A DNA stretch of 64,000 bases, taken from a virus. Below are positions 51,774 to 64,000 of this stretch, one piece after another. The translations under genes were made by a program, and so were the position numbers. Numbering within the stretch: the stretch's first letter is position 1; each line of letters starts with the position of its first letter. The notes beneath the pieces are model-generated. The model did not search any database. It was given only the letters and a program-made list of their open reading frames with translations, and was not told the DNA's origin. The DNA is taken from UHGV virus genome UHGV-1370141; one strand, written 5' to 3'.

Positions 51774-54071
51774 TTACTCCTCATCGAATGTTTCTTCTTC
51801 ATCTTCCTCCTCATCATCCTCACCTGCCCTTTCTGATTTCTTGACATACTGTACTTCCGCAAGCTCTTTATACAATCCTTCGTCTTCAGCGGTTTTATCG
51901 TAGAAATCCGACAGTAAACGCATACGGTTTTTATCCATCATGAACACACCTAAGCATTCAAGGATGTGATAGTACGGTTCTACGGTGGAGAACGCCGTGC
52001 GACGAATGTCCGCAATTTCGATCAATTCTTTAGGAATACCGTAGTTCTCTACTAAGTGCTCTGGCAGAATCAACGTTTTGTATTTACGGAAATTGTTTTC
52101 CTCAAACCACGCGGTTGCACCGTTTCGGATAATCGGATCTTCGATGCTGTCCAACCACTCTTTAATCTTGGTTTTGTTTTCTAAAACCACCGGTAGTTTT
52201 ACAGCGTCGTAAGGCGGTTCTTCCAAATGGCCAAACTTCGGACCAAAGATGGCGTTGTACATTCGATGATAGTGATAGTTTTTCTCGTCCTTCTCGTTAT
52301 AAGCGCTACGTTCCTTAATGTTCGTTGTTTTCAGATAGCCCGGATTACCCGAACGAATGGAATCCATAATGGTGTGTTCAATCTGCGCAACCTTTTCCAG
52401 TAACGGAATGATTTCAATCTGGTCACCACGTGCGACGACTTCACACAGTCCTTTAATAGTATTCTTAAACTCCTTCATGATAATCGGTGGAATGTTCGAG
52501 GTACGTAAAGACACCCCTTTTACTTCCAGCTCGGGATCTTTTTTCAACTGACCTTCCTGACCGGTAATCAGTGAGAAGTAGTGTTTTGCTTTAGTCGTTA
52601 ATGCAAACGAATCGAACTTAAATTCGTTCTTCATCGCGTACAAGAACAGACGTTCTTTCGCTACACCGATATTCGCAGACATACTCGCCATCAGGTGACG
52701 GAGGTGTTGCGTTGCAATATAAATCATTGCATTGGATACACGAGTTGCTTCTTCACCGTAATGCTTACCAGTATACCAAACCGCCCACCATTGTGCAGTC
52801 ATCATTGTAGAGTCGGTATCTGAAACCACACCTACCCGACGAACCACATCCGGCATTCTTGCGATATTAATCGGTAAGTTTTTAGTGGTCAGGATATTGC
52901 GAATTAAAAGTGCGTACTTACCGATGGTTTTCTGTAAGAACAGTGCGGAACGAATCAGCTCCTTATAGTCGTCCTGCTGATCCCACGGTAATGGCTTTTT
53001 CTTATCGTCGAGTTTCTTAACGTGGCTGAACGCTTTGCCCATCGGCACCACGTCAGTACGGAACTGGGAGATGATGATCTGCATGTCACCATCAATGGTT
53101 TTTTCCGCAGCATCCCAGTCTTCGACTTCGTCAATCATCTCACGAGAAATCAACGCGGTAATAAAACCACGCATGAACTGATCGTTGTACTTCGCAAGAT
53201 GATAAAAATCACCCATGTAAACAAATGCCGCGCGAGTGAGCGGAGAAACATTTGATACATAGTGCTCAACAAACTCCATCCCCTCTTCGTTCTTGAAATA
53301 AAAGTCCGCAGAGTAATGAATCACGTCCATCACTTCTTCTACGGTCGGATAATGAAGCTCGTACGTATCCATACATTTCTTGAAGCTATTCCAATCGGTT
53401 AACGTGCCGATGGACAAGAAATGATCGATGATACGTGACGGTGTGTCGTAATGACGATTACCGCCTAATAAACGTTCGTTACCTGCGTTACCGAATGAGG
53501 TTGCAGTACGGCAGGTTGATGTTAAAACAGAGTGTGAAGACTGGTTAAAGATGATCGTGTACGGAGAAGAGAATGCGCCCGACATCCCGTTGTTCAGAGT
53601 CTTGACTGCGTTCTGTTCATTCTTTTTGTTAATCTGTAAAACTCTATTACCTGCTGCTTCGGCAGCAAACATCTCTTTTTTCACCGCTGCACGTTTAGCT
53701 ACGTTAGCGGCAGTGAATTCTGATAGCTTGGAACGTTTGATGTGTTCTGGGATATAAAACGTTAACGACGGTGCGGAGATAATCTGTTTATCGATTACGG
53801 TTTTAAACAGTTTATCAACAGTTGTGTATTTCTCTTCACGGTCTCCTGTTTTCTGATTACGCACCCACATCTTACACAGCGGTGATTCGGTTGATAACTC
53901 ACCGCCAGGTGCCAACATCTCGTCAACTTCTTTACGACATAATTCCAAAGGGTATTTTTGTGCGGTTACGTTGTGAATGTATAGCGCAACCTGTTCACGA
54001 TAAGCATCGTTAATATCGATATCACGATGGTACTCGTCTACCGATAAACGAAAAGGAGAATTGTATTCCAC
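51774..54071 (-). CDS. hypothetical large protein (765 aa) with DTDS motif and acidic C-terminus; polymerase-like?
   Basis: VVSDTDSTMM resembles family-B polymerase motif C and a K-H-Y lies ~60 aa later, but motifs A and B were not found. Confidence 0.6.
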   Translation of the reverse strand: MEYNSPFRLSVDEYHRDIDINDAYREQVALYIHNVTAQKYPLELCRKEVDEMLAPGGELSTESPLCKMWVRNQKTGDREEKYTTVDKLFKTVIDKQIISAPSLTFYIPEHIKRSKLSEFTAANVAKRAAVKKEMFAAEAAGNRVLQINKKNEQNAVKTLNNGMSGAFSSPYTIIFNQSSHSVLTSTCRTATSFGNAGNERLLGGNRHYDTPSRIIDHFLSIGTLTDWNSFKKCMDTYELHYPTVEEVMDVIHYSADFYFKNEEGMEFVEHYVSNVSPLTRAAFVYMGDFYHLAKYNDQFMRGFITALISREMIDEVEDWDAAEKTIDGDMQIIISQFRTDVVPMGKAFSHVKKLDDKKKPLPWDQQDDYKELIRSALFLQKTIGKYALLIRNILTTKNLPINIARMPDVVRRVGVVSDTDSTMMTAQWWAVWYTGKHYGEEATRVSNAMIYIATQHLRHLMASMSANIGVAKERLFLYAMKNEFKFDSFALTTKAKHYFSLITGQEGQLKKDPELEVKGVSLRTSNIPPIIMKEFKNTIKGLCEVVARGDQIEIIPLLEKVAQIEHTIMDSIRSGNPGYLKTTNIKERSAYNEKDEKNYHYHRMYNAIFGPKFGHLEEPPYDAVKLPVVLENKTKIKEWLDSIEDPIIRNGATAWFEENNFRKYKTLILPEHLVENYGIPKELIEIADIRRTAFSTVEPYYHILECLGVFMMDKNRMRLLSDFYDKTAEDEGLYKELAEVQYVKKSERAGEDDEEEDEEETFDEE

Positions 54072-60740: not shown

Positions 60741-61388
60741 TTATCTCAGGTTATCGATGGTTTTACCTTCACTGTTCATGATGTAAACCGCATCACCTGG
60801 ATAGAAAAATTCGTAAGCATCGTCGACATGTAACACGCCGATAGCCTCGTCAACAGAGTGCTTACCGCTACGGAGCTGATTCTGATAGAAAGTATCACCG
60901 TCTTCGTTGATCAACTCGCGGACTAATTCGACTTCTTGAGATGGAATTGCAAAAGACATCTCTTCTAGGGTAAACCCTACAAAACGGCACACAAAGTCGA
61001 CTGTTACCCCAGGAACATAAATTTCATCGACGGACGTTTCTCCGGTATCCGGATTAAACGGTCGAATAAAAACGACACGTCCAGATGGTGAGGTAGCTTT
61101 CTGTCCTGGAAATGCCCAGGCCCAACCGTCGGTGTTTTTCAGAAATGGGTAAATGGCAGTCAACGTTGACGCTATAAGCAGAGGATCTAACCCTATCAGG
61201 GTCTCATACTCAATCCGAGTGGGTTTTCTCGGCAAATCGATGGCGCTGTTAAAACATAATTCGTTATTTTCGCCGTTAACGACTTTAAGTGCTTCTTTGT
61301 AAACACGGGACATTTTGTCACCTAAACGTACACGTTCGTGTACAGTGATGACTCGATCACCGTTAATGATACGTTTAACTGTAAGCAT
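60741..61388 (-). CDS. hypothetical protein (215 aa)
   Basis: ORF track. Confidence 0.55.
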   Translation of the reverse strand: MLTVKRIINGDRVITVHERVRLGDKMSRVYKEALKVVNGENNELCFNSAIDLPRKPTRIEYETLIGLDPLLIASTLTAIYPFLKNTDGWAWAFPGQKATSPSGRVVFIRPFNPDTGETSVDEIYVPGVTVDFVCRFVGFTLEEMSFAIPSQEVELVRELINEDGDTFYQNQLRSGKHSVDEAIGVLHVDDAYEFFYPGDAVYIMNSEGKTIDNLR

Positions 61389-62041
61389 TTCTGTTACCTC
61401 GTTCTGTTACTACTACTCGTTCTGTTGTACGTCGCTATACCCCGACGTGTGGGTTAATGGGACGCGTTGAACGTCTGTTGAGGCGCAGCAGGCAGTGGCA
61501 GCAATGACAGCAAGGGCAGCAATGGTACAAACGCCAACGCGAATAAAAAACGCTACTGTCACTGAACACAGCTTCAGAATACTGACAATAACGCAAAAAG
61601 GGTGTCGCTAACGGGTGTCGAGCCCCAGCCTCGGTGTGTAGCCACGTCACCAGGCATAGCGACAAAGTTCGGTACTGGTCAAACACAGCATGACATGGGA
61701 CGATGAAGGTTTACAGGTGATCATCGACCAGTACCGTCGAGTTAACACGTAACTCTCAATTCACATTACAGGGTATTCACGTTACACTTAGGGGAAATAC
61801 CCAATAATTAAATTCTTGGTGGGTGCAGGTGGGAGGTTTTATCCTCCCACCGTACAACCGTTTAGGTGGTCTAACCACCAGGGTCTCACGACCCTAACGT
61901 AAGTCCGAACTTAATCGGTAGGTGTTTACACGTTTTTAAGGAGCTTTCTACCCGTGAGCAAGAGCAGAAGTTATCAGAACAACCGACGCTCAGTTGAAGG
62001 CTGACGAGTTTGTAACTCTTGTTCGATTGCTCTAATCTGGG

Positions 62042-62114
62042 CGACCAATGGCAGGATTCGAACCTGCGAAATAACCGATTATTAGTCGGGTGTTAATTCC
62101 TCTAACTTCAATGG
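62042..62114 (-). tRNA. tRNA-like gene, possibly degenerate (anticodon loop reads as AAU)
   Basis: hand-folded cloverleaf: T-arm GCAGG-TTCGAAT-CCTGC, D-arm GTTA/TAAC with GG loop; but A at position 8, a U-U acceptor mismatch and a C-U anticodon-stem mismatch. Confidence 0.4.
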
Positions 62115-62124
62115 TCTAAATCCA

Positions 62125-62625
62125 TCAAAACAGCTTAAGTGATTGCGTTTGTCCGCCGCTGTACAGGTCGTAACGTTTCGCCACTTCCACCGCAGTGGGG
62201 GCGTCAACGCCAGCGCCTAATGCACCCAGGGCATAGTGAGCACCTGAGCCTATCGCATACGGTGGCTCTACAAACACGTAACTGGCGTATTTGTTGTCTT
62301 TGCACTTCGAGGCATCAATAACACGCCCGTCTGTCAAAACAGCAAGTACGATAAATTCAATCTGTTCGGGATACGTCGTTTCAAAACGAACCCCACCCCG
62401 TTCGATACCGCCGAAACGTTCAAGCGTGAGTTCTTGACGCACGGATTGCAATGCGGCGACATCACCTGCCAAACCAATCGCTTTCACGTCCTCACCCAAA
62501 AGCTTCCACGTCGTACCCTCAGGCGGCGTGTGAATCTTACGGTATTGCGTAGCAGCGCTTCGCTCTTCCACGGTGACTTGGCCATCGCAAGCTAACGTCT
62601 TTCCGTCAAAAACAATCGTGGTCAT
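62125..62625 (-). CDS. hslV: HslV-like Ntn-hydrolase peptidase (proteasome beta-type)
   Basis: MTTIVFDG...ACDGQVT...GLAGDVAA...AIGSGAHYALGA matches HslV MTTIV...AGDGQ...GFAGG...AIGSGG pattern (recalled); start overlaps upstream stop (TAATG). Confidence 0.65.
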   Translation of the reverse strand: MTTIVFDGKTLACDGQVTVEERSAATQYRKIHTPPEGTTWKLLGEDVKAIGLAGDVAALQSVRQELTLERFGGIERGGVRFETTYPEQIEFIVLAVLTDGRVIDASKCKDNKYASYVFVEPPYAIGSGAHYALGALGAGVDAPTAVEVAKRYDLYSGGQTQSLKLF

Positions 62626-62969
62626 TATGGCGAACCCCAATCCATGATGAACGTAGCCATGCACTGCTCGGCGTGTTTCATGATAGCTTTGTGCAAGCAT
62701 CTCTGAACCGCTGAGAACAGGTAAGGCCGATAACACACATGCGACTCCTTGGGAGACGGGGTGTGAGTAACCAACTGACCATCGGTGAGTTTAACACAAA
62801 CCGTAACAAGCTCTGTGTTTCGCCAATGGTTCACTGACACTGTCTCGATGCAGTTTAGCAGCGACGAATCATAACAACCCCAATTCTCGGGCGCTTTTAG
62901 CAGCCTGCCCAATTCATCGAGTCGGTACGGGACATTCGAACCGATGTTCGGAACGTCTTTGGAATCCAT
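62625..62969 (-). CDS. hypothetical protein, translationally coupled to hslV-like gene
   Basis: start moved to MDSKDV ATG preceded by GGAG; track start 63065 lies in ORF-poor sequence. Confidence 0.4.
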   Translation of the reverse strand: MDSKDVPNIGSNVPYRLDELGRLLKAPENWGCYDSSLLNCIETVSVNHWRNTELVTVCVKLTDGQLVTHTPSPKESHVCYRPYLFSAVQRCLHKAIMKHAEQCMATFIMDWGSP

Positions 62970-63649
62970 ATTAAAATCTCCTGCCGTGGTTTGTGTCACA
63001 CCAACAGGAAACTCTGTAAAAAATAATTCAGCTGCGTACCGGCGTTTCTCAACGGGAGTACGCACCCCTCTCGTCTTTGCGAGCCGTCAAGCTAGAGGAC
63101 ATCACACTGCCAGCGCTACCTGGAGCAGGGTTGTTTCGACGCAACGTCGTAATTCGGATTCTGGCCGCACCTCTGGGAGCGCATCCCACCGTCGGCTGCC
63201 CGCAGGTAAGTTCTACGGACCTCTCGCCAACGTCGCCCCCAGAGGCTGCCACGGTTCACTCGGATTTTCTCATGTCGGCCACGCGTCGCTGATAGCGCGG
63301 CTTCCCCCAAACTTCGTAAGTCGCGGGAACGGTACCGAGCACCTGAATTCGTGGGGTTTACCAACCCCTGAGGTTTTTATCCGAAGTCACGGAAACCCCA
63401 TAGTAAAACAAACCGCCAGTGTTAGGCCGAACGTTTTGTTTTTCCCAGCACACGGTGAACTAAAATCCATGCACTTGAAAAAACACCCCTGGCCAATAAC
63501 CAACCAGGGGGTTCGAGCTCTGCTGAATCATCGCAGACAGTAATCGTGTTGAGCTGTGAGCAGTAATACCTGAACTCCGAAAAATCTTCGTGGTTGTAAA
63601 TCAACCCCACGCAAATCCTCCGAACATACCATAGGGTTTTAACGTTCGG

Positions 63650-63858
63650 AAAAGGGGAATGGGGGTTTACCCCTTGGGTCAGGTGTTCAGGATCTCCCCG
63701 GAAGGGTAACCCCTACCCGATCCCCCAGGTGGGGATTTTACCCTGGCGAATTACCCCGGGTACGATTTTCGGTTTTTCCGGAAAATACCGCTCACCGATC
63801 CCCACCCCCTCACCGGGGGTCAGAGCGAGATCAGATCTCATAATAAGGATCGCGCGCG
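63650..63858. repeat. GC-rich cluster of short palindromes and G/C tracts
   Basis: GGGGAATGGGGG, CCCCAGGTGGGG, TTTTCCGGAAAA (perfect 12-bp palindrome), CCCCACCCCCTCACCGGGGG, GATCGCGCGCG; no credible ORF. Confidence 0.45.
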
Positions 63859-63977
63859 TTTTATATATATTTATATATAATATATATTATATATAATAAT
63901 TATATTATTAATATATTTATTTAATATATTTATATTTATTAAAATAAATATATATTAAAATATATAATTAAATAATA
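63859..63977. repeat. 119-bp tract of pure A+T
   Basis: no G or C between ~63859 and ~63977; TATATA/ATTAT-type low complexity. Confidence 0.7.
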
Positions 63978-64000
63978 CCAAAAGGTATTATTATTTTGAT

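Follow-up and report, generated by a model that had tools for sequence, protein, structure and literature searches.

HslV (ClpQ) forms a double hexameric ring that is activated by the C-termini of HslU through the apical helices H1 and H2. Among the relatives of HslV, the PPH proteins (Fuchs et al. 2021; reference sequence WP_042125023.1 / KEGG OC.1434257) are about 140 residues long, possess neither a propeptide nor helix H2, and belong to group I near BPH and HslV (PMC8665760). Their core combines the N-terminal-nucleophile fold with a Thr1/Asp17/Lys33 triad and Gly47 of the oxyanion hole, a C-terminal extension being a trait of RPC; 324 sequences were reported in 2021 from Caudovirales, prophages and their hosts, with no known function (PMC8665760). 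Here we analysed the right end of a 64,000-nucleotide stretch of viral DNA (UHGV virus genome UHGV-1370141; hereafter the window), where a preliminary description had placed an HslV-like threonine peptidase with no HslU partner in view at positions 62125-62969, a span that comprises two open reading frames (ORFs), namely the peptidase homolog and a 114-residue ORF upstream of it. By the published traits, the predicted peptidase homolog is a member of the proteasome-β/HslV superfamily and of PPH, and not HslV proper. We put at roughly 60% the probability that it is a PPH-family threonine peptidase, encoded by an accessory gene of a cassette and most likely working without a dedicated phage HslU-type unfoldase.

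Profile search revealed that the window protein matches PHROG 1040, the 'peptidase HslV family', with an E-value of 4.2e-35 and 122.7 bits over residues 1-165. Its relationship to HslV and the proteasome is seen only in profile-profile and fold comparisons, not in direct scans with curated models: BLASTP against E. coli HslV was insignificant, and neither a PADLOC scan nor a single-sequence search of PDB sequences gave anything significant. An 8-sequence profile searched against PDB sequences found HslV (1m4y) at 1.2e-8 and BPH at 2.5e-6, as well as 20S β subunits; the designer PPR proteins that topped the same list were rejected as a repeat artefact, no single stretch of them passing. Moreover, hhalign comparison of an alignment of 85 relatives with E. 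coli HslV gave a probability of 97.5% and an E-value of 6.5e-12 over 137 columns, pairing the MTTI segments, D14 with D17, K30 with K33 and the two GSG motifs, with a gap that spans HslV residues ~64-95, the region of H2. Among these 85 diverse relatives (mean column identity 31%), D14, K30, G54, G126, G128 and D153 never vary and conservation of T2 and S127 is 90% or higher, so that the catalytic Thr and Lys, the positions singled out in the preliminary description, survive a proper alignment together with Asp. In standard proteasome numbering, G54 would correspond to the oxyanion Gly47, the G126-S127-G128 motif to Gly128-Ser129-Gly130 and D153 to Asp166. Because 55 of the 85 relatives match the Pfam model Proteasome (PF00227; E <= 0.01) and the window protein does not, the predicted family is placed at the edge of this model.

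The AlphaFold2 model of the window protein (pLDDT 86, pTM 0.84) shows a predicted fold that matches BPH, HslV and the 20S β subunit. Helices are found only at residues 56-66 (H1), 129-137 (H3) and 142-152 (H4); H2 is absent, and a poorly ordered loop of residues ~67-90 stands in its place in the predicted structure. The protein has no C-terminal extension, ending 12 residues past the last conserved motif, and no propeptide, as MTT lies at the start codon. It therefore shares with the published PPH proteins of tailed phages and prophages of Proteobacteria the compact proteasome-β-like fold, the Thr after Met, the triad and oxyanion Gly, the loss of H2 and its encoding by a phage. Compared to published members of ~140 residues, the 166-residue window protein carries a 13-14-residue insert (~33-46) and a longer hypervariable loop. 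Compared to HslV, it has the same TTIV N-terminus after Met removal and alignable Asp17, Lys33 and GSG, whereas it fails the HslV equivalog models, lacks H2 and has no adjacent hslU. BPH (PDB 5ovs, 5ovu), by contrast, is a cellular protein of ~185-200 residues that keeps H2 and forms a double heptameric ring. The earlier HslV/proteasome-β call thus stands for the superfamily, on the evidence of PHROG 1040, hhalign and the fold, but not for HslV itself, the window protein belonging to PPH, a family that lacks H2.

The window protein is a divergent member of a known, uncharacterised family, since PPH, PHROG 1040 and the RefSeq label 'peptidase HslV family' predate it, and the gene itself would be no surprise to a specialist. 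PPH is the only primarily viral branch of the proteasome family. An exhaustive search with the family profile retrieved 11,399 clusters at 50% identity with E <= 1e-3 and 7,259 with E <= 1e-10, mostly of 135-150 residues and aligned from residue 1; the latter number far exceeds the 324 sequences of 2021. A PPH match is present in 65 phage records, from jumbo phages down to phages of 40-49 kb, and the window protein is at most 39% identical to the phage records in INPHARED. A second proteasome-like family of 210 residues (MTTIVGIQGDGFAVVCVDSRIS...) is abundant in viral contigs (IMG/VR loci L030-L053); it has in common with PPH only the C-terminal region from GSG to Asp, and may represent another class of homologs, such as AAH.

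The protein begins with MTTIVFDGKTLACDGQ and ends with LKLF. Its ATG (62625-62623) and the TAA of the upstream ORF (62969-62625) have one base in common, at 62625, giving TAATG at 62623-62627; both this overlap and the MTTIV start with Thr right after Met had been pointed out before and were borne out. An alternative longer in-frame reading would begin at GTG 62736, and for a Salmonella homolog (P0001) the gene caller chose a longer in-frame start. However, two E. coli / IMG/VR relatives (L001 and L014) have a stop codon five codons upstream of MTTIV, which argues that the ATG is the conserved start. The apparent lack of an N-terminus in an E. coli relative (P0002) was rejected, as an intact MTTIVFDGKTLACDG is present in its coding DNA and the gene call had simply used a wrong start codon. 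The reading of the gene as a chance ORF is countered by the PHROG 1040 match, by the more than 7,000 profile-matching clusters and by the ratio of non-synonymous to synonymous substitution rates (dN/dS) of 0.04-0.20 among its alleles.

Sequence comparisons assign the window to a Seoulvirus-related jumbo phage of the SPN3US-like kind: the divergent DNA polymerase encoded at 51774-54071 is ~80% identical to the polymerases of SPN3US, SPAsTU and Asesino, and the window also encodes split RNA polymerase subunits of the phiKZ type. SPN3US gp001 is the syntenic counterpart of the PPH gene, each lying ~10 kb from the DNA polymerase gene and followed by a tRNA gene, and the two proteins are 34% identical, the best INPHARED match being 39%. 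A megablast search of the phage collection with 61000-64000 as query gave no close match. Close alleles were found in Salmonella assemblies, a 222,841-bp E. coli contig, Logan assemblies and three IMG/VR contigs of 151-225 kb. The Salmonella homolog P0001 is 99% identical to the window protein and represents 400 member sequences, with one source name shown, Salmonella enterica serovar Chester. This cluster and the E. coli contig would suggest the presence of a lytic-type jumbo phage in many bacterial isolate assemblies, by a carrier state or by contamination.

Among six PPH alleles of this lineage, dN/dS ranges from 0.04 to 0.20 and the catalytic positions are all intact; the low ratio indicates a functional gene. 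Substitutions concentrate in residues 55-92, which hold 23 of the 38 differences from L011 and 8 of the 15 from L001. This segment corresponds to H1 and the low-confidence loop replacing H2, and the variable loop coincides in position with the site of pore-loop insertion that Fuchs et al. discuss (PMC8665760). The locus thereby adds an allele series in which the catalytic core is under purifying selection and one loop changes rapidly. In one relative (L010 10001-10480, Logan SRR19505508), an in-frame deletion has fused the upstream ORF with the C-terminal half of PPH, the junction falling in a short ADG/TDG motif common to both ORFs, with the loss of Thr1, Asp and Lys; the deletion is either a loss-of-function allele that occurs in nature or an artefact of assembly. 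Altogether, PPH is best described from these comparisons as an accessory, fast-evolving and occasionally lost gene. The L010 fusion, together with a divergence that leaves 34% identity against 80% for the DNA polymerase, might suggest a decaying remnant without function, but we regard this as highly improbable: it is contradicted by the measured selection, by catalytic positions intact in the six alleles and invariant across the family, and by a stop-start overlap kept with all three types of upstream ORF, SPAsTU with its 46-nt gap excepted.

That the window encodes no HslU-like unfoldase, as stated in the preliminary description, was confirmed by tblastn of E. coli HslU (best E = 0.68) and by the absence of a Walker A (P-loop) motif from all ORFs of at least 90 residues across the 64 kb; no hslU adjoins PPH, whose neighbours are the small ORF and a tRNA gene. 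One alternative is that PPH rings dock on HslU of the E. coli or Salmonella host, or mix with host HslV, and thereby redirect or poison the ATP-dependent protease. Both hosts encode HslU, an HslU-like gene of the phage's own is lacking in the window and probably in the lineage, and PPH also occurs in small temperate-type phages too small for an unfoldase. HslUV structures showed that HslU docks on a face bearing two apical helices, H2 among them, through which it activates HslV (PMC8665760); as H2 is missing from the window protein, canonical HslU docking is doubtful, half of the apical surface contacted by HslU being gone (PMC8665760). In addition, pairwise similarity to E. coli HslV is insignificant, and the loop differs strongly among alleles that infect the same hosts, which would not be expected for docking onto a conserved host protein. 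We thus consider engagement of the host protease unlikely.

The activating partner might instead be a phage protein encoded elsewhere, so that PPH and an HslU-like AAA+ unfoldase outside the window would form a phage HslUV-type protease. Indeed, an HslU-like ATPase of 577-586 residues (PF07724 and PF00004) is encoded by MET_P1_082_240, SPLA3, 1252, SPAsTU, pEa_SNUABM_29, the Machina/Caitlin group and pSal-SNUABM-04. Phage HslU-like ATPases (MET_P1_082_240 'hslU', Caitlin gp127 and, probably, RAY gp116) from SPN3US-, Machina- and RAY-like jumbo phages represent the candidate partner class. They co-occur with PPH in many related jumbo phages; where the coordinates of the hits can be compared, the two genes are 103 kb apart in SPLA3, 108 kb in pEa_SNUABM_29 and 105.6 kb in Caitlin. 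The expected syntenic position is ~41 kb past the left end of the window, and the gene would hence be invisible in it. RAY gp116, a protein of the HslUV family, was found in the phage nucleus (PMC10299810), and the gene numbering in close relatives indicates that it is probably the HslU-like ATPase. For pSal-SNUABM-04, the absence of HslU beside HslV has already been remarked on in print (PMC7823757); however, its gene at MT710307.1 106144-107871, annotated 'putative DnaA protein', encodes a 577-residue HslU-like AAA+ protein that is 49% identical to the Seoulvirus protein, so the published statement appears to be contradicted and to reflect an annotation miss. A jumbo-phage review of 2026 does not mention PPH or HslU-like proteins.

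Despite this co-occurrence, the two genes are never adjacent and each is found without the other. Phages of the SPN3US species retain PPH and only a 75-residue N-terminal stump of the HslU-like gene (L008 3001-3228 of EC001, against the 586-residue gene L006 3001-4761 of MET_P1_082_240), two small downstream ORFs being deleted as well. PPH without a Seoulvirus-type HslU-like gene is also seen in Erskinevirus, in 40-49-kb phages such as Dewey and in the EL group, the last compared by the Seoulvirus-type search and not by the broader E. coli HslU search. Conversely, Kwan, Wellington, the CR5 group and the RAY group have an HslU-like ATPase and no PPH match. Because SPN3US lost the HslU-like gene and kept PPH, and each gene occurs alone, the gene content argues that pairing with a phage HslU is not obligatory; the locus thus adds that the phage HslU-like ATPase is neither linked to PPH nor apparently needed for its retention.

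For the lineage of the window itself, a large protein collection yielded 341 HslU-like proteins, the best 120 of which contain no protein from the lineage contigs. When IMG/VR was scanned with two peptides that do not vary among 13 diverse phage HslU-like proteins, nine jumbo-phage contigs were matched and none of the three lineage contigs, including the near-complete contigs of 220.8 kb and 225.0 kb. A scan with the motif F-L-D-E-I-D-K-L, weak evidence in that it also missed known CR5-type genes, retrieved 98 loci with no unexplained strong HslU-like candidate, and the 80 contigs listed included none of the lineage. Protein search with a flanking Seoulvirus gene found no protein on a lineage contig; all that it recovered was a protein of 54% identity, encoded on an unlinked contig from Logan (L009) with no AAA+ gene near it. 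This Seoulvirus-related contig, of unconfirmed lineage, holds small ORFs at the syntenic HslU site. Further IMG/VR scans with the flanking gene, a tail-associated protein and a hand-made W-rich pattern reached only SPN3US and unrelated contigs, and not the syntenic HslU locus of the lineage. A phage HslU-type partner is therefore probably absent from the lineage. The earlier suggestion of a partner elsewhere in the phage applies to relatives, where the HslU-like gene lies ~100 kb away, but it does not extend to an obligatory pairing, and the gene was not found in the near-complete lineage contigs; a phage HslUV-type protease is accordingly a rather unlikely account of the window protein.

We propose that host methionine aminopeptidase would cut off Met1 and expose the Thr nucleophile, as for E. 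coli HslV, whose N-terminus is (V)TTIV; removal is expected because Thr is a permissive second residue. The Thr nucleophile, with D14, K30, the oxyanion G54, G126-S127-G128 and D153, could then hydrolyse peptide bonds. H1, H3 and H4 provide the inter-subunit contacts in the proteasome, HslV and BPH (PMC8665760), and their retention makes ring assembly plausible. The hypervariable loop at the pore-loop position, in place of H2, probably governs substrate access or the choice of partner. In this lineage, PPH would most likely act as a self-assembling peptidase without a dedicated phage HslU-type unfoldase, its substrates being peptides, unfolded proteins or particular proteins of the host or of defence. 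A role in host interaction or counter-defence would suit a gene that is accessory, diverges fast, lies in a recombining cassette and is occasionally lost.

Several points weigh against a PPH-family peptidase that works without an unfoldase. First, the window protein has no Pfam match at E <= 1, PF00227 staying below its gathering threshold, and the HslV equivalog models failed by a wide margin (TIGR03692, 12.8 bits against a cut-off of 157.75; NF003964, 12.7 against 137), so that the check with HslV and proteasome profile models proposed in the preliminary description yielded no significant direct match to a curated model. Second, many relatives encode both PPH and the HslU-like ATPase, and the absence of an AAA+ gene from the lineage is based on scans for peptide patterns and on protein search by a word index rather than on hidden Markov models run over a complete genome. 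Third, the L010 variant without Thr1, Asp and Lys would make PPH dispensable at least sometimes, if its assembly is correct. Fourth, we found no biochemical or functional study of any PPH member in the literature, and the loss of H2 could mean a role that is not ring-forming or not proteolytic.

The last point corresponds to a non-protease function, either as a connectase-like ligase or transpeptidase, or as an amidohydrolase on a non-protein substrate. The loss of H2 recalls connectase, a related ligase from which H1 and H2 are both missing (PMC8665760), and the variable loop of the window protein lies near the substrate entrance. Nevertheless, H1 is kept and there is no connectase-type insertion; the full proteasome-type residue set is conserved, including GSG and the Asp166 equivalent, and the closest structure and profile matches are by a wide margin the proteolytic BPH, HslV and 20S β subunit. 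Such a function is thus improbable, and a peptidase remains our preferred reading.

The features of the PPH locus are collected in Table 1. PPH would be the distal, translationally coupled ORF of a freely recombining cassette between a structured leader RNA and a tRNA gene. The upstream ORF has no match in Pfam, PHROG, NCBIfam or PADLOC. Three unrelated types of ORF occupy its slot, type A in the window, L011 and L014, type B in L001 and L010, and type C in SPAsTU and pEa_SNUABM_29, whereas SPN3US has no ORF there. The upstream stop overlaps the PPH start in the window, L001, L011 and pEa_SNUABM_29, hence with all three types, SPAsTU being the exception with a 46-nt gap between the two genes. 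The stop-start coupling is real by comparison of the alleles, and the upstream ORF is a variable element of the cassette; it was rejected as a conserved partner or adaptor, given the three unrelated types and its absence from SPN3US. In addition, L014 4640-5501 is a mosaic, with a PPH 98% identical to that of the window next to an upstream ORF of the L011 allele, which indicates recombination inside the cassette with breakpoints between the two ORFs. In Pseudomonas phage EL (L076 2501-4518), PPH (gp015) lies directly upstream of the PhuZ tubulin gene, after a divergent intergenic region of 650 nt.

Table 1. Predicted features at and around the PPH gene of the window
Feature	Position	Strand	Remarks
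tRNA gene, called tRNA-Ile, anticodon AAT	62040..62116	minus	ARAGORN; Rfam tRNA model 40.1 bits
PPH-family proteasome/HslV-like N-terminal-nucleophile threonine peptidase homolog	62125..62625	minus	166 aa and stop, read from 62625 to 62125; MTTIV...KLF
Upstream small ORF, 114 aa, Cys/His-rich	62625..62969	minus	TAA overlaps PPH ATG
Conserved structured RNA-like element (leader or independent non-coding RNA)	62970..63485	minus	conservation, covariation, fold z-score
Terminator-like hairpin, 11 pairs and U-run	63486..63510	minus (PPH strand)	just 5' of the structured element
AT-rich low-complexity block with palindrome AATAATACCTTT(T/A)GGTATTATT	63841..64000	unassigned	flanked by CGCGCG runs

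Upstream of the two ORFs, the right end of the window had been described as poor in ORFs. Indeed, 62970-64000 has no conserved ORF, although the DNA is strongly conserved and contains a structured RNA: 62970-63660 is 96-100% identical to L010 and L011, compared to 50-80% for the adjacent ORFs, and conserved islands of the element region recur in SPN3US, SPAsTU, phiEaH2 and pEa_SNUABM_29. A structure alignment of seven sequences over 62970-63460 gave a consensus of 64 pairs, 21 of which show compensatory double changes. Paired cells reach 94%, against ~40% with slid partners, and none of 500 shuffles attained the observed values. Moreover, the window sequence has a fold z-score of -3.61 when read on the PPH strand, compared to -0.04 for the plus strand. 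Rfam 15 gave no match for the element in the window or five relatives, only tRNAs being found in the region. The element may be a new large phage non-coding RNA or a long regulatory leader; previously undescribed, it is a more unusual feature than the PPH gene. Across jumbo phages of Seoulvirus and Erskinevirus, the RNA is conserved and its pairs covary, and the order structured RNA, PPH, tRNA genes is kept in all six relatives examined. A bolder version of our proposal, to which we give a low probability, is a stand-alone, diversifying 'mini-proteasome' for host takeover or counter-defence, with its loop setting the choice of substrate, that would be tied functionally to this upstream RNA of ~0.5 kb, whether as leader or as partner.

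At the site equivalent to the terminator-like hairpin, SPN3US also has a hairpin with a U-run, of different sequence, which points to a short, separate transcript that would begin at the AT-rich block and end at the terminator. The 5' half of the stretch 63511-63840 (63664-63836) varies in length between lineages. The AT-rich block is kept in SPN3US, SPAsTU, phiEaH2 and pEa_SNUABM_29, and three independent assemblies (L002, L012 and L013) end in or near it, 1.2-1.3 kb upstream of PPH; it could be a promoter cluster, an origin or a mere assembly breakpoint. The recurring order of AT-rich block, structured RNA, optional small ORF, PPH and tRNA adds a defined genomic setting to the allele series and the evidence on the HslU-like partner, and together they lead to testable predictions on expression and function.

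The tRNA gene at the other end of the cassette starts 8 nt 3' of the PPH stop codon. The same slot is occupied by tRNA-Trp(CCA) in L001, L010, L011, L014 and SPN3US, the Ile-like gene being common only to the window and L002. An AAT anticodon in a tRNA-Ile is unusual for bacteria and phages, and the Rfam score of the gene is just 40 bits.

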